Source of the DNA: Azolla caroliniana | Taxonomy: Eukaryota > Plantae > Polypodiophyta | DNA: 64,000 nt | Direction of reading: 5' to 3' | NCBI GenBank assembly: GCA_043228905.1 | Contig: JBHGNT010000013.1 | Span: forward strand, 7,440,001 to 7,504,000 | Part shown: positions 4,168-48,950 of the stretch, one piece after another | Numbering within the stretch: position 1 is the stretch's first letter | Layout: each line of letters starts with the position of its first letter | The notes under the pieces: model-generated | Database searches by the model: none | What the model saw: only the letters and a program-made list of their open reading frames with translations | What the model was told of the DNA's origin: nothing | Made by a program: the position numbers and the translations under genes

Positions 4168-4749
4168 CTGCTTCTTGGCTTCCCAACTGGGACTAAACCG
4201 GCATAGCTATCCAAACCGATCAGGTGAGGCTAACCGAACCATAACGCAAGCCTCCCTTCTTCCTTTCTGGCCCTTGGTCCGAGACCCCCACGGTCCCACC
4301 CTCTCTAATATGTGCACGCGGAATATCGCGACATCTTTGGTGAACCCGACGTGAAAGAGGCGGCAGAAGAGTCTAGGATGAGGGGAACTGAACTGGCAGA
4401 GGTGATGGCAGCAACCGTCGACCGTATAGTAAATGCACGGGTTGGCATGGGTACCCTCGACATGGCCATATAAGCGATAGTCGATATGATAGGCCGGTTC
4501 AACGGGAAGGACGTGACAAAATACCAGGAGGCTTATAGGGTAGAAATGATAATGAGGGATATTCTAGAAGACAGACGCCTGTCCGGATTTCCGTGGGTGG
4601 CAATGCCGAGCATCCACGTGGAGGTGCTCGAGGTGCAAATGGTGTGCAGGAATTGGGCGGAGTTTGAGGAGCAACTCCTTGAACGAAATTGGTTTGCTGA
4701 CTCTCTCGGATTGTCGAGAGCCTTGGGAAAGGGAGGGACACATCGGTGC

Positions 4750-7097
4750 TGTTACCGTATGAGACGTACGGGTGATTGTTAAGTGTGATAAGTGCGGGTG
4801 AAAGATATATGTATGTGTAATGTCATACGATTATGAGTGTGAATGTAAGTGAGAGTGTGAGGGATATAAAGAGGTGTGAGTTTGTGACTAGGTGTGAATG
4901 GCCAAGGGTCTTGCACCCTTGTGTATCTACCCCTTTGTACCTATATTAACCCCTTATGGGGAATGAATGAAAAAAAAAGCAATAGTTCTCTCTCTCTTCC
5001 TCTCTCTCTCTCTCTCTCTCTCTCTCCCATAACGTTGAACCCCTTGGGAGGGGGGTGGAGCCATTCTAGGCACCACCCCCCACCCCACAATGCTTCTCAA
5101 TGCACATCGTAATCATGCTCTCAACCCCATAATGCTTATCAATCTCGCCATCACATTGTTTCCATCTTCATCACTATCAATGTCATCATCAATCTCGCAA
5201 TGCTAATCATTTCCATATTCGTATTATTAACAAACCCTAACCCTATTCCTATCTTTATCACCATAATCATTAACCCTAACCCTAAAACCATCAACACTAT
5301 TTTGGCACGCCCTACGGCCGACCATCCTTAGAGAAGAAGTCAAAGAAGGATGCACGATGACAACGTAAATGTGAAATGTGCGATAAATGGTGATAATAAT
5401 GTGGGCGAAATCGAATCAACAATGTATGGTAAATGGCGGTTACAATATGCTAGATAATGTCAATGAATGAGATGTGGCAATACGAATGTGCGAGAAAGAG
5501 TGGTGCGGGAAATGGAGACAAACGAAGACGGAGATGGAATAAGGGAACAGAGCCCGTGATGATGGCAAAGAAAAAAAGAAGAATAGCATCGAGACGATCG
5601 AACGAGCAACCGGAGTGGCCGAGGAGTGGCCACAATGACCGGAGAGAGGCCGGAATGAACGGCGGCAATCGGAATGAACAGCGGCAATCGGAATGAATGG
5701 AGGGAAGTGGACGAAGAGCGATGTCGATCGTGGTGGCAGCCAACCGATGATCGAAACCAACAAAAGCAACGGCCGAACGACGGCCGGATGGGCCAAATAG
5801 CGGTCAAAATTGCGGCGGCCAAGAGTGGCGGCGTCGGAATGGCTAGAGTGGCAAAACAGCCCCGGCGGCCAAATATCGACGTGAGAAAGACGGCCGGAAT
5901 AGCCGAAATCGTCGAACAATGAAGCGGAGCGGTGGAATGGCCGGCGGCCGGACAAACGACCAAGGAAATGGTCGGAAGGGCTGGAAATAGATGTTGGTGA
6001 TCGGATGGCAACCAAACAACAATAGATAAAGATGAATATAACATTAGGAAGAAGAAAGATGAAGAAAGAATGAGAAACATTAAGAACAAGAAAAGAGAGA
6101 GAAACGGGAGAAAACGCATGAAGAAGAAGGAAGAATGAGAAGAAAAGAAAAGAAAGAACGTGAAAAAAAAAAAGAGAGAGGAAAAAGAAATTTAAAATAA
6201 TATTATTATAAAGAAATAAAAAGAGAAAGATAGGGGCATAAAACAAATTTCAAAAACTCATGGACCTAAAAGAAATGGACGCAAACCACACACAACTCAC
6301 AAGATACAAAGAAGACTATACATACAACGTTTTTTTGACAACCCGAAGTATGTTACCAAGTTCGTGTGCCGACAGAACGAGAATGTTCGTGTCGATAAAG
6401 ATTCGCTGACCGACAAAGATGTTCGAGTCAAGCGCTCCGATCGAGGGAGTCGATCGTTGAGAGGACCGATGGAAGTTCCGGTCGAAGAAAGATTATGATC
6501 AAGGCATGTGGGATCGAAGTGCAAGGCACTTTCCCACGGGCGTGCCATATTGTGTTACCGTATGAGACGTACGGGTGATTGTTAAGTGTGATAAGTGCGG
6601 GTGAAAGATATATGTATGTGTAATGTCATACGATTATGAGTGTGAATGTAAGTGAGAGTGTGAGGGATATAAAGAGGTGTGAGTTTGTGACTAGGTGTGA
6701 ATGGCCAAGGGTCTTGCACCCTTGTGTATCTACCCCTTTGTACCTATATTAACCCCTTATGGGGAATGAATGAAAAAAAAAGCAATAGTTCTCTCTCTCT
6801 TCCTCTCTCTCTCTCTCTCTCTCTCTCCCATAACGTTGAACCCCTTGGGAGGGGGGTGGAGCCATTCTAGGCACCACCCCCCACCCCACAATGCTTCTCA
6901 ATGCACATCGTAATCATGCTCTCAACCCCATAATGCTTATCAATCTCGCCATCACATTGTTTCCATCTTCATCACTATCAATGTCATCATCAATCTCGCA
7001 ATGCTAATCATTTCCATATTCGTATTATTAACAAACCCTAACCCTATTCCTATCTTTATCACCATAATCATTAACCCTAACCCTAAAACCATCAACA
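4750..7097. mobile_element. Very recent non-autonomous LTR element (LARD/TRIM-like). LTRs 4750-5296 and 6553-7097; non-coding 1.26-kb interior
   Basis: LTRs TGTT..AACA appear identical except for one CT unit. 5-bp TSD GGTGC at 4745-4749 and 7098-7102. Inserted in gypsy gag. PBS-like TGGCACGCCC lies next to both LTRs, on opposite strands. Confidence 0.93.
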
Positions 7098-8882
7098 GGT
7101 GCCACTCTAGGAGTTTGAAAAACGATTCGCTCGGCTCTCGGTGCTAGATCGGACCGTGCTCGATACGAGTCGGATCCTACTATTCATTAAATCGGTAGAC
7201 GCGCTTGATCGGGAGAAGGTGGGTCTCCTGTTGGAGATGGATGAAGGACTCACGGCTGATTGGGCCGTTGTGAAAAGGTTTTGTAGCCGTTTCGACAAAC
7301 GGCATGAGTGGAGTAACGCGGGTCCGTGGGCAACAGGCCCGACCACGGGGAAAAGGCTAGAAGAAACGATTCTAGCTCAAATGGAGGAGACGCCAAGGTG
7401 GATCAAGTCAGGCGTGGTAATGACGGACGTGGTCAAGGGCCCATCCAGGGGCGTCGCTCTGGAGGAGCTGACGAAGATGGTGCATGATCTCCAGATCGCA
7501 AAAGGTAGGGGATAGTCTCGTGACTAGAGGCCTCGAGTAGACCAGCAATGCATGTCGTGTGACGTTGTCGGCCACATCCAGAGGGACTATGCCGATTTCA
7601 CGGAGGCATTTAAGAGCAACGTGGTGTACCTTTGGAATGGCCGGGTACACGCTAGCAATATGCGGAGGGCCTTGAAGGTAAATACTAGCCGTGGTGAGAT
7701 GAAAAGGTTAATGGAGGAGGTTGCGGCACAGCACGCCAAAACTGTCCATTATTCGGCATCGGCCGACATCCGTGTCGGAGATGAGAACAACAAGACGACA
7801 AGGGAATCCAGGTTTTGGCCGCTAGTGCCGGAAGGCCTTTTCAGGGTAAAGCTGCAGAAGGAAGAGGCGGACCGCGCACAGAGGGGGGTTCAAGAGGGCA
7901 CCAGATGGGACTATTTGGTAGAAGAGAAAACCGGCTTCATGGAGGCCGTGTGCCAGAACTACGAGGTTTTGGTGGAAGATAAATGGATCGGAAAGGCCAG
8001 AGGGGCTGGCCCCTCAAACCGGTATGAGACCCGGAAGGGGCCGAAGTGACGGAGGCCCGGTAGACCAACGGGAGAACATGAAAATGCCAGGATTCCGATT
8101 AAGCTCAGAAATAGAAGAGAGAGCAACGTACCTGCAAAAGGTCCTGCTGAGGGCAAACAGACAAGACACTCCGGTCCTAAACCAATTCGACGAGAATGAC
8201 TAAGAGGGGGATTGGTTGCTAATCGGCAGGTTCCTGAGCACGATGGCACTGAATGCAGCATGGTCAAAGGACAAAGCAAGCTGGATCCAAAAGAAGTCTT
8301 ACCGGTTCTTCTTTTGGAACGACAAGATATGGCGGCATCCGAAGAAGCGGACCGGTGCGCCACTCTGGGTGGTGGCGAGGAAGGAGGAATAGTCAACGCT
8401 CCTATTGGAATTTCACGACGACCCCTGTTCCGGGCACAAAGGAACGTGGGCCACCTTCGAGAAGCTAAAGGAAAGGTATTCGTGGCCGGGAATTTATTGC
8501 GACGTGTATCATTTCGTAATGACGTGCGAGAGTTGTCAGATGCATTCTGGAATCCGGCACTACGATGAACTGCACCCGACCTACCCCCCAACCATACACT
8601 TCAAGTGGATGGTCAACTTAGTGATGATGCCGATAGGGGTAGGGGAAATGTGATACTTGGTGCTTGCACGGGAGGATCTAACGAACTAGGTGGAGGGCCG
8701 AGTGTTGTACGGGTGCGTAGGCAAAATCGTGGCTGATCGTGGAGAGTTGGATGCGCAAGGAGTTGAAGAGTTGTTCGAACGGTTAGGGGTGAAGCTTTCT
8801 CTCTCTATGGCATACAATCTGGAAGCCAACGGAAAGGTAGAGTGCAGGCACGGGCCGATTGTGAAGGCGCAAGTACGGACAT

Positions 8883-11800
8883 GTGTACAGAGAGAGAGAG
8901 AGAGGAAGAGGTCGTTGCCTCTGTTGTAACCGCCGCCTGTGGCGAAGATCGTGAGCATGAGGTCGTTGCCTCCGTGAGCTCACTGTTGTAATCATTGTGA
9001 TATACTGATAGTTAGTAGTCAGTGGACGGTCGTGCTTTTTCCCTCTCAAGGTTTTCCATGTTAAACATCTTGTGTACTCTTCTCTTCTTTGTGTCGTGCG
9101 TTCATTATCCATTTTCTGTGTTTGATTCTAGACTCGGTTGTGGCCGAGCGTTGTTCATCGGGAGCGTGTGTTCCTGACAAGTGGTATCAGAGCGAAACGA
9201 CACAGAAAATGGACGATTCGTTGCAAGGCATGTTCAAGCTCACCGGCTCCAACTATTCGGTGTGGAAGTCGAAGATGAGGGACATGCTCGTGGTTAAAGA
9301 ACTCTAGCTTCCGGTTCAATTCGGGGACAAGAGACCAGACAAAATCGATGCCGCGATATGGGAGGTAATGCACATGAAGACAACAACGTACATACGGTGC
9401 TTCATCGACATGAGCCTATACAACAACTTCAATGAAGAGAGCAAGGCGCATGAGCTCTAGGAGAAGATCGGCATTATGTTTCAAAACAAAAATGTTGTTA
9501 ATCAGGTTTCGGTATTCCGGAAGCTAGTAAGACTCCGGTACCAAGATGGCTCCAGCATGGCGGAGCACATAAATGCCTTCCAGGGGCTGATCCACCAGGC
9601 AACATCATTGGAAGTACCTCTTGCCGATGAGGTACTAGCACTACTCCTGCTCGGTTCCCTCCCAGATAGCTGGGAGACGTTGGTTGTCACCTTGGGCAAC
9701 GCCGGGTCGGAAGGGAAACGGTTATCCCTAGCAAGAGTGAAGTCGAGCTTGCTAGATGAGGTGGCGCGACAAAAAGATAAGGATACGAGCTCCGACCCCA
9801 AAGCGCTCCTTACCGAATCGGAACGCGGAAGACAAAGAAACCGTAGTCCCCAGAACCAAGAAAAGTCAGGGACACGATCAAAGTCAAGGGGGAGGCCTAC
9901 TTGCTTCTATTGCGGCAAGCCGGGACACTTCCAAAAGAACTGTCGGCATTTCCGAAAAGAGAAGTAAACTGACGGTACCGATTCAAAGCGAACTACGGAC
10001 CGAAACGGTAAAAACCGGAGGGGGCCGGACCGATAGGGAACGACAACAATCACAGCAAGTGAAGAAGAGTTGATGCTCATCACCGAGGAGAGTGAGCTAA
10101 ACCTTGCCGGCGACGAGATTACCTGGGTGGTCGACTCCGGAGAGTCGTTCCACCTTACCCCAAAGCGCTCCTTACCGAATCGGAACGCGGAAGACAAAGA
10201 AACCGTAGTCCCTAGAACCAAGAAAAGTCAGGGACACGATCAAAGTCAAGGGAGAGGCCTACTTGCTTCTATTGCGGCAAGCCGGGACACTTCCAAAAGA
10301 ACTGTCGGCATTTCCGAAAAGAGAAGTAAACCGACGGTACCGATTCAAAGCGAACTACGGACCGAAACGGTAAAAACTGGAGGGGGCCGGACCGAAAGGG
10401 AACGACGACAATCACAGCAAGTGAAGAAGAGTTGATGCTCATCACCGAGGAGAGTGAGCTAAACCTTGCCGGCGACGAGATGACCTGGGTGGTCGACTCC
10501 GGAGAGTCGTTCCACCTTACCCCGGACCGGAAATGCTTCTCATCCTACACATTCCGGAGGTTCGTCTGAACCTGATGTTAGCCGGTCGGCTAGATGATGA
10601 AGACTACATGGGTAGCATTCGGAACGGTGTTATGAAGTTCAGCAAAGGGAGCCTGATTGTGGCTTGGGCCCGGAAGGTAAACACACTTTACCTGATGAAT
10701 GCCCGGTTATGTCCAGAGGAAGTGAACGTGGCATCCGACACTGCCGGTGAGCTGTGGCACAAAAGGTTGTGTCACATGAGCGAGAAGGGGATGAAGAGGC
10801 TTGCAGACGACAACCTCATTCCAATGAAGAACGTGCACTTGGAGAAGTGCACTGATTGTCTGGTCGGTAAGCAAAACCGGACCTCCTTCCAACCAAGGCC
10901 ACCGATGAGATGTAATGCACCACTAGAGTTGGTGCATACTCATGTCTGTCAAGTGGACACGAAGTCACATGCAGGATCTTAGTACTTCGTGACGTTCATA
11001 GATGACCACAGCCGGAAGCTGTGGGCCACACCGTTGAAGACGAAGGATCAGGTGCTATCCATCTTCAAAGAGCTCCACGCGAGAGTGGAAAGAGAAACCG
11101 GCCGGAAGCTGAAGGCGATGCGAGCAGATAACGGAGGTGAATACCGGGGGCAGTTCGAGGAGTACTGTCGCTCGAAGGGAATCCGGCTCGAATTCACCGT
11201 GCCGAAGATGCCGGAACTAAACGGGCTGGCCGAGAGGATGAACTGGACCATAATGGAGAGGGTCCGGAGTATGCTGCCTCATGCAAAACTACCCAATAAG
11301 TTTTGGGCTGAGGCATTGTCGACGGCGACATATGTGATAAACATATCACCCTCAGTACCCTTGGATGGAGACACGCCACAGAGAGTATGGCTCAGTAAGG
11401 AATTATCTTACCGGCATTTGAAGGTATTCGGGTGTCTTGCGTATGTGCATGTAGCTAAGGACCGGAGAGGAAAACTAGATCCGAAGACCCGGCCATGCAT
11501 ATTCCTCGGTTACGGCGACGATGAGTTCGGCTACCGAGTGTGGGACCTGGTCGACAAGAAGGTATTCCGGAGTTGAGATATTATCTTCATGGAGGACAAG
11601 ACGCTCACCGACTGGGAGTTGGAGAAGAAGATAATGAACTCCGAGTGGACCGGTAAGGATCGATTCTACGATGAGCAGACCCAACTGGCAAGAGACTGGT
11701 TACCACTCGAGGAACCAACCGGTTATGGTGGGGATACCGAACCGGCAGAAGAAGAAGTAGAGGAAGCTAAAACCGGAACCGGCCAAGACCCTGAATCGGA

Positions 11801-14105
11801 TTTGGATGAAGAGCAAATGGAGGAACCGGTTACCGAAGCCCAAAGACGGAGATATCCTCTCAGAGAGAGAATGGCCCCCCAGAGATTTCCGGATGCAGAG
11901 CATGTGCTGCTGACCGATGAGGGAGAGCCGGAAAGCTTCGAAGAAGCGAAGGATGACACCCACAGCCGCAAATGGTTAAGTGCCATGCAGGATGAGATGG
12001 ATTCCCTGCATGAGAACCATACGTACGAATTGGTGGAGTTGCCGAAAGGAAAGCGGGCACTCTGAAACAAGTGGGTGTACAAGTGGAAACTGGGAGATGC
12101 CGCCAACCCCCCGAGATACAAAGCCAGGATTGTGGTGAAGGGGTTCCAACAGAAGAAAGACGTGGACTTCGACGAGATATTTGCCCCGGTAGTAAAGATG
12201 ACCTCCATCCGGACGGTGCTGAGCATAGCGGCAAGCATGGACCTCGAGGTAGAGTAGCTGGACGTGAAGACAACATTGCTTCATGGTGACCTCGAAGAGG
12301 AGATCTACATGTAGCAACCGGAAGGATTCGTGGAGAAGGGGAAGGAGCACCTTGTTTGCCGGTTGAAGAAGAGCCTGTACGGATTGAAGTAGGCTCCCCG
12401 ACAATGGTACCGGAAGTTCGACTCCTTCATGACCGATCAAGGGTACCACAAGACGCAGGCCGATCACTGCGTGTTTTTGAAGAAGTTTGAAGGAGGCGAC
12501 TTCCTAATACTCCTTCTGTACGTGGACGACATGTTGATTGTCGGACGGGACAAAGCCAAAATACGGATGCTGATGAAGGCTCTCAACCGAACCTTTGCGA
12601 TGAAAGACTTGGGTCTGGCAAGACAGATGTTGGGGATGCATATCATCCGGAACCGGCCAACGAAGCAACTGTGGCTGTCACAGGAGAAATACGTGACAAA
12701 GGTGCTTCAGCGGTTCAACATGTCAAATGCGAAACCGGTCGGATCGACACTTCCGGAAAACTTCAGGTTATCCGGTAAGCAAAGCCCGAAGAAAAAAGCA
12801 GAGAAGGCGGATATGATGAAGGTTCCATATGCCTCTACCGTCGGGAGCTTAATGTACGCAATGGTGTGTACCCAACCGGATATAGGATACGTAGTCGGAG
12901 TGGTGAGCCGGTTTATGAGCAATCCCGACAAGGAGCATTGGAATGCAATCAAGGAGCCGGTCTACATCCGGGTATGTAATGACATATGTAGGGGGAGCTA
13001 TTTCGTGGCAGTCGAGGCTGCAGAAGACAGTTGCGTTGTCAACCACAGAGGCGGAGTACATGGCGGCTGTGGAAGCCGGCAAGGAAATATTATGGATGAA
13101 GGACTTCATCGGAGAGCTCGGTATCCGGCAAGGTGAATACTTGCTCTATTGCGACAATCAAAGTGCCATCCACCTTGCTAAGAATGCGGCCTACCATTCC
13201 CGGACGAAGCATATCCAGCGAAGGTATCACTGGATCTGGGAAAGAGTAGATGACCAGGAGTTCGCACTGACGAAGATCCACACGGCCAAGAACGGGTCAG
13301 ATATGCTGACCAAAGTACTTATACCCGACAAGCTGGATACATGCCGGAAGCAGATCAGACTAGTAAGACATCCCATGCCGGAGTGAAGGGGGAGTTTGTT
13401 AGGAAACAAGTCCCTCCGGATGGGAAATGAGAAGAACAGTACGGATGGGAAACCGGATTTGGAGTACCCGCCTACGGAAGACCCAGTGAGAACTGGATGA
13501 CAAACGGAAGACCCGGTGAGAACTGGATGTGGTGTACCCGGCAAGCGCCGGATGACGAGTACCCGGCTATGGAAGACCCGGTGAGAACCGGATGAGGAGT
13601 ACCCGGCATGAGCCGGATGGTGAAGGCCCGATGAGAAGTGCTGACCGGATGAAGGGACATATTTGTAAATATGTTTTTTGAGAGTCCATCGGGGCTATAT
13701 TTGTAAATAGCCGAAAATTCATATTAGTATAAATATGACTGAGGGCAAACAGAGAATTGAGTGTTGTTGTCGTTCTTGTTGGTGCAAGACTAGAGAGCGC
13801 GTAACTATGTACAGAGACAGAGAGAGAGAGGAAGAGGTCGTTGCCTCTGTTGTAACCGCCGCCTGTGGCGAAGATCATGAGCACGAGGTCGTTGCCTCCA
13901 TGAGCTCACTGTTGTAATCATTGTGATATAGAGATAGTTAGCAGTCAGTGGACTGTCCTGCTTTTTCCCTCTCAGGGTTTTCCATGTTAAACATCCTGTG
14001 TACTCTTCTCTTCTTTGTGTCGTGCGTTCATTATCCGTTTTCTATGTTTGATTCTAGACTCGGTTGTGGCTGAGCATTGTTCATCGAGAGCGTGTGTTCC
14101 TGACA
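8883..14105 (+). mobile_element. Ty1/copia element with near-complete gag-pol carrying stops. 5' LTR lacks U3 (8883-9179); 3' LTR 13397-14105
   Basis: PBS TGGTATCAGAGC at 9182-9193. Zinc knuckle CFYCGKPGHFQKNC, protease WVVDSG, integrase RADNGGEY, RT LYVDDM, RNase H YCDNQSAI. PPT GTGAAGGGGGAG. Confidence 0.93.
9795..10523 (+). repeat. 362-bp tandem duplication of the gag zinc knuckle to protease segment
   Basis: Copies start at 9795 and 10157, with ACCCC microhomology at the junctions. Confidence 0.9.
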
Positions 14106-41920: not shown

Positions 41921-43453
41921 TTATGTCAGTTCAGCTATGATTAGCGAGAGAGGAGGTTCTTCTTCTGAGGGAGGAGGGAGGTTTAGATCAAAAGAACTTA
42001 CGGCTATAGAGCTATTAACCTGCAGCAGATTATGACGATGATGACCGATGTCTTCTGAGCATGATGTTAACTTTGATAGACCTGAAGGATTCATCGTGAC
42101 AGAAGACGAAGGAGATGAGTCAGAATCTGAGACCAGTAATTCTTGCTTCTTGCATGAGGCGACAGCTGCAGAAATATCTTCCCCTTCCTCTTCTTCTTCT
42201 CTTAGATGCTTGCTGCAAGAATCCACAATAATACACATATTTGAGCTTGGTGCATTTGCAGCGTCTAAACAAAGATTTCCTGAACCTCTAATCTGAGAAA
42301 ACCCTATTTCTTTAGCTGTTTTCACGAGAACAGGTTCAGCTGCTGCAATATTAAGACTTAATGCCATATCCACAGCTGCAGGATTTGGACTCGATTCACC
42401 ATAGCTACAATTACGGTCTAGTCCACCAGGTGGAACCAAGCTCTGAATTGCCTGAGCATAAGGACAGTGGAAAAATGTAGCCTTCTGATCAAAATTACTT
42501 TCCTTCGACCTTCCATAGAAATAACCTGTTAATCCATCAACCTTTTGATCAGAATCAGTTGCATTTGATCTTCCAGAGTGATGGCTAATTACTCCATTAA
42601 CCATTTGACGAGAACTACTTATACTGGATCTTCCATAGCCACGGATGATTAATGCTGCAACATTTTCATCATAACTAATTCTGGAGCTCCTATAGCAATG
42701 GGCAGTAAATGCATTAACCTTTTGCAAAGGATTCCTTATGAAGCTCCCATAGCCATGGCTAGGTAATCCATTGAACTTTTGACCAGAATTACTCGTAGTA
42801 CCAGAGCTTTCACAACCAAGGGTAAACAATGCCGCAGGAGTTTCGTTCACAAGAGATGTATCTTGTCCATCATAACCAGTATGGTACATTTTAGTACTAC
42901 GAGGGCCATGAGTAATTAGGGTTTCTGGTTTACTTATCTGTTTCTGATGTTTGAAGTTCAGATGAATTGAAGGAGGATGAAGAACAAGATTATCTGCAGG
43001 CTGAGCAGAAGAAGAAGAAGAAGTGTGTTTCCCATTAATAATGTTGAAATTTGTCTTGGCTTTTGATCCACGGAGGGACCGAGCAGCTGTGTCATACGCC
43101 ATGGCTGCCTCCTGAGCTGTGTCGAAGGTCCCTAACCAAACCCTAGTTTTCTTCCAAGGGTCTCGAATCTCGGCTGCAAATCTTCCCCATGGCCTCTTGC
43201 GGACACCACGATAATTAGCTTCTTTCTGCACATGATCTGTGGTAACCGTGGTCACTGCTGGATCAATTGCACTATCACTATGGCCATATACGTTGTTATT
43301 CTTTGTCTGCAGCTGCTTTGAGATGGTAGAAGGCAAGGCATGAAGATGATGATCGACAGTTGAGATCTGAGAATTGATATCGAGATGAAGCTGTTGGTTA
43401 GCTGTATTCTTGGCTATAGCGTGAACGTCTGATCTGCGGGAATCCAGGGCCAT
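41921..43453 (-). CDS. Intronless AP2/ERF transcription factor, class II / group VIII EAR-motif repressor, 510 aa
   Basis: AP2 domain [57 protein letters not shown] (~43048-43216). SDSDSS motif and C-terminal EAR FDLNLPP. Uninterrupted ORF, first ATG at 43453. Confidence 0.93.
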
Positions 43454-43655
43454 TACTCGAGAGAAGAAAGAATAGATGGAGATGGAGATGGAGATGGAGA
43501 TGGACAGTGACACTCACTCACTCACTGGGTGGTTTGTATAGTCTCGATTCCTGTCTTTGGAACAGAAAGAAAGAAGATAGGAAGGAAATGGATATGGAAA
43601 TATCTACATATGCTTACTACGGTGTCTGTAATCTCCGAGACAACTGGAGGTTCCA

Positions 43656-46866: not shown

Positions 46867-48950
46867 TGTCATGGAGAAAGTCGTCCCTAGGAGGAATCGA
46901 TGGATAGTGTGCGTGAATTGGCCCTTACACACGACACATGTTTTGATGTATTCACATAGTATAGGTCCGCTAGGACAGAGAGTAAAAGGGATGTAACACT
47001 AATGGCTCTCTCTCCTTGTGCTATAAAAGGGGAGGAGAGGGGTTGAGGGGGGGATTGGACATTTTGAGAGGATGAAGTGTTGTCGAACTAGGAACCGAGC
47101 TCTCTCCTCCACCATCGTTGTTGCTTCTGTAGGGATTTTGGGTTAAGTTTGCTGCCTCTGTTGCGTGAAAGCCCGTGTGCTTCCGGTATAGGCACCACTG
47201 CGTATTTTAGTGTGTGTGTTCGTCTGTGTTGATTCTGTCACCAGCTTGCCGGTTGTAACATTGCAAGCTCCGTAATCTATACTGTTATTGGAATTGATTC
47301 TCTCGTTTCTGTCTCTCTGTGTTTTTTGCGAATCTCTCTCCCTCTCATCTCTCACGCTCCTTGGTTCAGGGCCCCTACGGTCCTGCCTTTTTTCATACGC
47401 GAAAGTGTAACAACACGACATTAATTTGGTGAACCCGACGTGAAACAAGGTGGCAGAGGAATCGAAAATGAGGGGATTAGAGCTTGCCGAAGCCATGGCA
47501 GCAACAGTCGATCAGATAGTAAGTGCTCGTGAGGGCACGTGCACCCTCAATAGGGCCATTGAAGCAATTGTCGGTACAATAGGCCGATTGGATGGGAAGG
47601 ACGCCACGAGTTATTTGGTGGCCTACCAGGCCGAAATGGTGATGAGGGACATCCCAGAGGAGAGGCGTCTAGATGGGTTTCCTTGGATAGCGACACCGGG
47701 CATCCACGCAGAGGTGCTTGAGGTGCAGGCTGGATGCCGGACCTGGGGGGAATTCGAAGCGCGGCTCCTCGAGCGGTACGGGCTTGATGACACGCTCCAG
47801 TTATTGAAGCAGGACTTTATGGATTGGGTGGAGACCCTAGGGAAGGGGAAGAATGTGTCGGCGCTCCTCCGGGAGTTTGAGGAACGCTTCGTACGTCTTT
47901 CGGCACTAGACAGGACCGTACTGGACACGAGTCGTGTCCTTCTATTCGTGAAAGCTGTGGACGTGCGAGATCGGGAGCAAATGGGTCTCTTGCTGGAGAC
48001 GGACGATGGGCTAACAGCCAACTGGGCCGTGGTAAAAGGGGTCTCCAGCCGTTTCGACAAACAGTGCGAGTGGATCGACAAGGGCTCGTCATGGGTAGGA
48101 GCGGTTGAGGTGAGAAACCTCGAGGGACCCCTGTCGGCGTGCAAGGAGGAAACTCGGGATTGGCTTGAGACAGGCTCGTCCGGCGTGGTCAAGGGCCCGT
48201 CTGGCGGAGCGCATCTGGAAAAATTGATGCAGATGGTACGAGACCTCCAGATCGCACAAGCGAGGAGGGATGTCGGCGAGCAGCCTCGCGACCGAAGGCC
48301 TCCGGGTGGGCATCGATGCTTGTGGTGTGATGCGGTTGGTCACGTCCGGAAGGAGTACTTGAACTTCGCAGAAGCAATAAGAGCTAATGTGGTGTACCTA
48401 TGGAATGGGAGGGTGCACGCTAGCGAGACCCGGAGAGCCCTGGAGCTAAATATCGGACGGGGAGGAATGAAGATGTTGATGGAAGAAGCGGCGGCGCGCC
48501 ATGTGGAGACCATCCACTACTCGGCGTCGGCAAGGATTCGGGTCAGGAGTGACGAAGGCCGGAAGACGAAAGACTCTGGGTTCTGGCTGGTGGTACTAGA
48601 AGGCCTCGCCAACGTGCAGTTGAGAAGGGATGAAGCGGAGCGTGCGGAGAGACGGGTCCGGGAGGTCACCGAGTGGAGCGATCCGGTCGAAGAAAAGACC
48701 GGCTTTGTGGAAGCCGCGTGCTAGAACTATGAGGTTCTGGTAGAAGACAAGCGTGCGGGAAGAACAGGAGGGGCCGGACCCTCGCAGCGGTACGAGACCC
48801 GATTCGGACTGAAGTAGAATGAACCCGGTGCTGCCACACACCGGATAAAGCAAAGAAAACCGGTTATCGGTTGAGCACTGAGATAGAAAGAACGACGGAC
48901 CTGCGCAAGGTCCTTGAGGAACGAATCTTCGACATCAAGGTGGAGTTGTT
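46867..48950 (+). mobile_element. 3'-truncated tRNA-Trp gypsy element: LTR 46867-47420, gag ORF 47450-48724
   Basis: PBS TGGTGAACCCGACGTGA at 47427-47443. 424-aa gag homologous to 4378-8049, with a degenerate zinc knuckle CLWCDAVGH. Confidence 0.88.

Follow-up and report, generated by a model that had tools for sequence, protein, structure and literature searches.

A tRNA-Arg-matching site occupies the polypurine tract position in a clade of Ty3/gypsy elements from Azolla caroliniana and probably binds the plus-strand primer

Plus-strand priming from a polypurine tract (PPT) is treated as general for LTR retrotransposons and retroviruses, and the variety described lies in the primer of the minus strand (PMC6317226); the accessible text of that work gives three types of minus-strand primer and no tRNA at the PPT. 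A bipartite primer binding site (PBS) is known from Ty3 and Drosophila gypsy, where a second tRNA-matching box lies near the 3' end and the T arm of the tRNA is used, as in the elements described here. The box of Ty3 and gypsy, however, complements the tRNA on the genomic RNA and works with the minus-strand primer in elements that also have a PPT (PMC1635307), whereas the site reported below is tRNA-sense, includes the CCA, lies near U3 and replaces the PPT. Helenus TRIMs are likewise non-autonomous LTR elements with tRNA-derived sequence, but in these the tRNA sequence sits inside the LTR as a promoter, the PPT is kept and, in the available text, no role in priming was found (PMC10886601). 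A fission-yeast preprint describes ordinary PPT priming in its accessible part (10.1101/2022.12.06.519325), and primer sites are not discussed in the available text of PMC7466625. A search of the open literature, with subscription journals and Repbase outside its scope, turned up no LTR element described as priming its plus strand from a tRNA.

The window analyzed here is a 64,000-nt stretch of the A. caroliniana genome (contig JBHGNT010000013.1, positions 7,440,001 to 7,504,000) and contains, at 4750..7097, a young non-autonomous LTR retrotransposon with direct TG...CA LTRs, a target site duplication (TSD), a PBS and no coding domains. The LTRs (5', 547 nt, 4750..5296; 3', 545 nt, 6553..7097; both +) differ solely by a 2-nt indel in a CT repeat, with zero substitutions, and direct sequence comparison places the TSD GGTGC on both sides (4745..4749 and 7098..7102), in agreement with the first-pass annotation. 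A TATA-like TATATTA at about 4942 in the 5' LTR is followed by a CT tract. The internal region (5313..6509, +) is non-coding, A/G-rich and shared in part with other non-autonomous relatives, and a Pfam search of the three longest internal ORFs gave no match, in line with the earlier statement that the element encodes nothing. The element reads on the plus strand because its 3' region is homologous to that of a gag-pol family (family A, below). The host sequence of the insertion (4300-4749 and 7098-7600) is a decayed coding repeat related to an ORF at 47444-48724 and without a Pfam match.

At the left inner edge, a 6-nt spacer (CTATTT, 5297..5302, +; 6 nt in family A and 5 nt in family C) separates the LTR from a minus-strand PBS consisting of a 10-nt complement of the tRNA-Arg(UCU) 3' end (5303..5312, +). 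The right inner edge is built differently: a T-arm box identical at 7 of 8 nt to tRNA-Arg(UCU) positions 51-58 (6510..6517, +), for which tRNA pairing is predicted on the minus strand, is followed by a 13-nt insert that folds into a hairpin of 4 bp and a 3-nt loop and shows compensatory changes between families (6518..6530, +), and then by a sense copy of tRNA-Arg(UCU) positions 59-76, including the CCA and carrying a 1-nt deletion typical of the clade (6531..6547, +). A 5-nt spacer (TATTG, 6548..6552, +; 2 nt in families A and C) precedes the 3' LTR. The sense copy thus occupies the PPT slot, and 6531..6547 (+) is likely a plus-strand primer site acting on minus-strand DNA, as judged from the sequence comparisons below.

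The first-pass annotation had described these ends as two inverted primer sites, TGGCACGCCC at 5303-5312 (+), 6 nt inside the left LTR, and TGGCACGCCCGTGGGA at 6532-6547 (-), 5 nt inside the right LTR. The positions are correct, and the pattern GGGCGTGCCA-N1-9-TGTT has two matches in the whole window, which are these two motifs, while 0 of 100 shuffles gave two. The motif had been given as the complement of a plant tRNA-Arg 3' end, with the lack of a matching host tRNA named as a possible objection; the host tRNA-Arg(TCT) genes (L033, L037, L038, L039 and L046) do give a matching sequence, with an expected PBS of TGGCACGCCCGGTGGGAC. Both motifs match tRNA-Arg(UCU), but they are not equivalent: the left one is an ordinary short PBS with a contiguous match of 10 nt, and the right one, matching over 11 nt and then interrupted by the 1-nt deletion, is the end of the longer bipartite site at 6510-6547. 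The inverted-repeat look of this copy is partly incidental, arising from a PBS switch between Arg isoacceptors, because diverged relatives carry a tRNA-Arg(UCG) PBS at the left.

No PPT was apparent at either end, as noted earlier from the sequence. Within the 15 nt before the right LTR the longest purine run is 3 nt, and runs of at least 7 purines were absent within 60 nt of either inner LTR edge (the left edge being read on the minus strand). In a control LTR element of the same window (44938/50078) a 7-nt purine run abuts the 3' LTR. A second control (8884/13808; window 8884-14105), with a Met-type PBS, likewise lacks a clear PPT before its 3' LTR, so a weak PPT alone is not unusual and it is the tRNA site that carries the argument. 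In family A there are purine runs (7 and 8 nt) at 47 and 37 nt upstream of the LTR, and these are missing from the window element and family C. Genome-wide, a search for 10 purines directly upstream of A/B-type U3 starts matched 31 times at 25 places (control 7), at sequences unrelated to each other save two duplicated pairs; one match, situated a full LTR upstream of a PBS junction, is genomic flank. Outside the clade, a 43% identical relative (L136) has an 11-nt purine run before TG and after its ORF2, a candidate ordinary PPT at a putative LTR edge. The missing PPT is a clade-wide departure from LTR anatomy and a family trait.

Copies were sought across 523 Mb of genome sequence. Seven loci including the window element (the window, L011-L016; family B) have LTRs 98-100% identical to the window's, and in six of the seven the tRNA-Arg(UCU) motif is present at the left and the right internal end, with a single change in two of these loci; in the seventh (L013) the 3' site is missing through truncation. 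Among more diverged non-coding relatives, the seven with both ends recovered (L017, L018, L020, L023, L027, L030 and L107) all have the right-hand site, and their left site matches tRNA-Arg(UCG). The motif conservation asked about in the first-pass annotation holds for the 3' site, kept in 1,666 matches, and not for the 5' motif, which is mostly Arg(UCG) in relatives. One family B locus, L011, consists of a window-type LTR around an inverted piece of pol and ORF2. When its reverse transcriptase (RT) was compared with the genome, the 150 matches scored, the best of 19,122 candidates, were all 99-100% identical over 200 aa, and many of these sit in open frames of about 1,950 aa.

Ten elements taken from these best RT matches represent family A. 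Their LTRs are 420 nt long and 99.5-100% identical, the coding order is GAG-PR-RT-RH-INT (with a weak Pfam match for the protease, E 0.05), and TSDs of 5 bp were found in 7 of 7 elements checked, a set that excludes L059, whose 3' LTR is shortened. Downstream lies ORF2 in the sense direction, about 990 aa long and with no match in Pfam; its product (L052:2199-5174 and relatives) is helical and charged, with both ends conserved across families A and C. At the 5' end a 6-nt spacer separates the LTR from 13 nt matching tRNA-Arg(TCG), and at the 3' end, downstream of the sense gag-pol and ORF2, 9 of 10 elements have a sense copy of the tRNA-Arg(TCT) end, CCA included, 2 nt before the 3' LTR; the tenth (L065) lacks the site and appears truncated. 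The exact 3' junction of family A has 706 genome matches and the 5' junction pattern 368. Family A is the likely helper of the window element, because L011 and L012 are chimeras of the window's LTR with family-A sequence.

The pol of family C is about 50-84% identical to that of family A, and the same 3' site lies downstream of sense coding sequence in 10 of 12 C-type loci; for the other two (L098, L113) no sense coding match was found. The C-type loci with both ends seen (L099, L101 and L103) have an Arg(UCU)-type PBS, like the window element. Across intact gag-pol copies the 5' PBS matches tRNA-Arg(UCG) or (UCU), and most relatives combine tRNA-Arg(UCG) at the 5' end with tRNA-Arg(UCU) at the 3' end. 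The possibility, raised at the outset, that relatives would have a normal PPT is not borne out, as families A and C carry the tRNA site in the PPT slot. The first-pass annotation was right that this slot reads as a tRNA 3' end, yet its two-way reading falls away since the gag-pol relatives make the orientation of the element definite (+).

Sequences of the family are present in contigs from organisms A to D. Three of 52 metagenome loci (L120, L127 and L143, on ENA contigs; INT 70-77% identical) reach the 3' junction and keep the site, and most of the close loci among the 52 end before the 3' LTR. In L121 there is a partial site match with the box absent, and the distant loci L134, L135, L140 and L154 show no clear junction. 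An Rfam search of L052, L120 and L127 gave 0 matches. Taken together, the genomic copies are those of a recently active, high-copy Ty3/gypsy clade that appears to be amplifying currently. Two ideas tried on these families were rejected. Flipping of the internal region between the two sites does not fit families A and C, in which gag-pol and the 3' site keep the same relative orientation, and L011 is a chimera. Nor is intramolecular pairing of the PBS with the 3' site tenable in family A: there the two sites have 4 nt in common and cannot pair with each other, because they match different tRNAs.

The 3' site of the clade consists of 8 nt (tRNA positions 51-58), the 13-nt insert, and positions 59-76 less one base, and this bipartite pattern has 1,666 genome matches against 0 in the control. 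Four fully complementary stem types occur in the insert (GTAC/GTAC, GTGC/GCAC, GGAC/GTCC and GCGC/GCGC). Pairing of the hairpin reaches 95% in 15 chosen representatives, and 2 of its 4 pairs have changed on both sides. Compensatory hairpin changes fill 13 cells, compared with 0 of 500 shuffles and with 0-2 cells in slid controls, figures which, the sequences being related, do not amount to a p-value; the wobble polarity of departures from the hairpin was set aside as confounded with CpG decay. The bipartite site is, on this comparative evidence, apparently under selection on structure. Co-folding for family A pairs the tRNA with both halves of the minus-strand site and loops out the hairpin (RNA parameters serving as a proxy), and for the window variant the minimum-energy fold is a different one, without the hairpin-plus-box arrangement (RNA parameters, again a proxy for the DNA/RNA hybrid). 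Being a sense copy of the tRNA, the 3' site can pair with it solely on the minus strand, and in every family examined the CCA of the tRNA is placed 2-5 nt from U3.

We consider that in this clade a second host tRNA, tRNA-Arg(UCU), probably anneals to minus-strand DNA at the 3' site and primes the plus strand (probability about 0.65); at the same level we hold that the whole clade dropped the PPT and has both strands primed by host tRNAs, often two Arg isoacceptors, the second acting via a hairpin-split 25-nt site. Of the two mechanisms put forward in the first-pass annotation, a second tRNA priming the plus strand is the one favored, and routine replication from both strands is disfavored by the single tRNA-perfect site against 1,666 others. 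Under the favored mechanism, tRNA-Arg(UCG) or (UCU) would prime minus-strand DNA at the 5' PBS as usual, and after the first transfer the minus strand would copy the 3' site, displaying the complement of tRNA positions 76-59 and 58-51 with the hairpin looped out. There, tRNA-Arg(UCU) would anneal over about 25 nt, its 3' end lying 2-5 nt from U3, and be extended into the LTR; weaker binding to DNA may be compensated by the longer pairing, about 25 nt vs 10-13 at the PBS. Once the second transfer is complete, the minus strand would copy the start of the primer, RNase H would remove the primer, and integrase would trim at the terminal CA, with rare failures leaving tRNA copies at U3 ends.

Such tRNA copies were looked for with a tRNA anticodon and variable-arm pattern, which gave 76 genome matches; all single matches and parts of the C11 and C22 clusters were examined, with nine C4-cluster matches and the rest of C11 and C22 left out. 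Within the clusters examined the copies resemble genes, and almost none of them has the CCA. Long LTR-adjacent tRNA copies ending in CCA (or a one-base variant) were found in 24 events, 5 of them sense at U3 ends, 8 at U5 ends and 11 unorientable. The eight U5-end copies are what ordinary read-through of the minus-strand primer would leave. At U3 a retained primer of that kind would be antisense, so the sense U3-end copies (L011, L034-36 as one tandem event, L042, L078 and L079) need another source. Of 21 scorable copies, 7 differ at position A58, compared with 0 of 126 cells for the six other A/T positions (L082 dropped for an indel; the fusions L011 and L079 left unscored). In mature tRNA A58 carries the m1A58 modification, and the changes at A58 fit reverse transcription of mature tRNA; among the scorable U3-end copies the change occurs in 1 of 3 (L078). 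In L079 the element hairpin switches into tRNA sequence exactly at the 8-nt box. The U3-end copies could also have come about without priming, by template switching between element RNA and packaged tRNA at the shared 10-17 nt.

An unlikely alternative, which nevertheless survives best, is that the plus-strand primer is the element's own RNA, mimicking a tRNA 3' end and surviving RNase H as a non-purine PPT. The sense strand of the 3' site can form a T-stem (88% paired, with no compensatory change) and, with the 95% paired hairpin, such an RNA would end in CCA; the deletion carried by the family, never repaired, fits a mimic too, and an RNA-derived primer is the textbook route (PMC10886601, accessible text). 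Weighing on the other side, a mimic by itself leaves unexplained the tRNA sequence 5' of position 51 at five U3 ends, there is no conserved upstream partner for the acceptor stem (no invariant alignment column before column 20), and Arg(UCU) copies occur at A-type U3 ends (L034-36, L042) even though the family A PBS is Arg(UCG).

A reading we regard as improbable is that the element also replicates from antisense transcripts, with the 3' site as their minus-strand PBS and as the source of the U3-end tRNA copies, which would then come by normal read-through. Read on the antisense strand the site does look like a PBS, and in L011 it occupies the PBS slot beside a window-type LTR. A PBS is recopied from the tRNA in each replication cycle. 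Under antisense replication the site should consequently often be tRNA-perfect, but the genome has one tRNA-perfect copy of the bipartite site (that of L011, which lies inverted in the PBS slot) and 1,666 copies that carry the deletion. The L011 copy shows that the site is repaired when used as a PBS, and that ordinary copies are not so used; the lone tRNA-perfect copy fits a tRNA primer and an RNA mimic alike. It may have arisen by strong-stop DNA landing on sense family-A RNA. Moreover, a search for a TATA-like motif on the minus strand of the window element's LTR found none, and the other strand would still be without a PPT.

Even less probable is a function of the 3' site in binding tRNA for packaging, strand transfer or pausing, with the plus strand primed by another short RNA at the U3 edge. 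Ty3 and Drosophila gypsy offer a precedent in their non-primer 3' tRNA-binding boxes, but these pair on the genomic RNA, that of gypsy with the anticodon and T stems (PMC1635307, available text), whereas the site of the clade pairs solely on the minus strand with the CCA 2-5 nt from U3, and the stretch from the CCA to the LTR contains no further conserved primer candidate. That the PBS of the window copy was duplicated and inverted in a one-off rearrangement can be dismissed: the two motifs do share 10 nt in inverted orientation and rearranged chimeras exist (L011, L012 and L014), but the site has 1,666 copies, is found in coding families with near-identical LTRs and 5-bp TSDs and in other assemblies, and the 31 purine matches at 25 places before A/B-type U3 starts are unrelated sequences.

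In an RT tree, families A and C grouped with the metagenome relatives (100/98), beside Riccia elements (95/97) and apart from the angiosperm rows bearing an additional RNase H (aRH); they also stood apart from four aRH-less angiosperm rows that we took as Athila-like, a label assigned here. The closest named RT relatives of the clade are liverwort and fern proteins. Neither PF13456 nor PF00075 matched an additional RNase H in the pol or ORF2 of family A, no chromodomain was matched after the integrase in Pfam at E 0.1, and the native RH is intact, its four acidic residues being present when the translation was read by eye. Tat Z1/Z2 ('zero') are aRH-less Tat branches of non-seed plants (PMC13468544, PMC10508981), with a non-chromovirus gypsy polyprotein without aRH, as in the clade; the accessible main texts do not describe primer sites, the words 'PBS', 'PPT' and 'polypurine' being absent from them. 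Tentatively, the clade resembles these branches, in a tree built with no labelled Z1/Z2 reference.

Against the lineages in the accessible part of PMC6317226, the clade is like Athila in its 5-bp TSD, single GAG-PROT-RT-RH-INT ORF and extra 3' ORF, but Athila has an Asp, Asn or Ala PBS in place of Arg. A tRNA-Arg PBS is shared with Ogre and TatIII; Ogre, Retand and TatI-III, however, carry the aRH that the clade lacks. Phygy and Selgy differ in a 4-bp TSD, a Trp or Ala PBS and the lack of an extra ORF. Family A, the putative helper, fits none of the lineages defined in the available supplement of that work (MOESM5), because it combines absence of aRH and chromodomain with a 5-bp TSD, an Arg PBS and an extra 3' ORF.

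Double tRNA priming has good support in the genomic copies, from which we infer the priming step itself. A high-copy, recently active clade without a PPT implies that the plus-strand priming step is replaceable. If the proposed mechanism is true, the RT must start synthesis from a tRNA annealed to a DNA template, each end has a tRNA that RNase H must remove, and replication depends on two tRNAs. Such elements would be overlooked, or placed in the wrong orientation, by annotation tools for which a PPT is obligatory. As the family is intact and abundant, the claim is directly testable.

Several junctions and arrays were noted alongside these analyses. Retention of tRNA at cDNA ends appears frequent in the clade, given LTR-tRNA-LTR junctions carrying long tRNA copies (L043 and L082). 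In L014 (1124-1153) two LTRs are joined by a spacer, about 9 nt of PBS, about 10 nt of 3' site and a further spacer, which looks like a circle junction keeping primer copies of both ends; a deletion fits equally. On a small contig, a foldback junction (L076) surrounds a tRNA-Arg(TCG) copy between two family-A-like U5 ends and may be an assembly artefact. L011 (G000:C3:8087109-8094713) lies within a tRNA-Phe(GAA) gene and is flanked by a duplication of 13 bp instead of one of 5 bp, which suggests aberrant integration. Unusually long spacers of about 11 nt between the LTR and the tRNA site were seen in other LTR families (L032, L043, L044, L080 and L093). Tandem arrays of diverged tRNA-Arg(TCT)-like sequences, nearly all without CCA, are located at L095 and L096 (G000:C22:1.43-1.51 Mb and C11:0.69-0.70 Mb) and also at C4:19.5-19.7 Mb. 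Elsewhere in the window, amid repeats, a 530-codon open frame with an AP2 domain (41921-43513, -) is likely a host transcription-factor gene.
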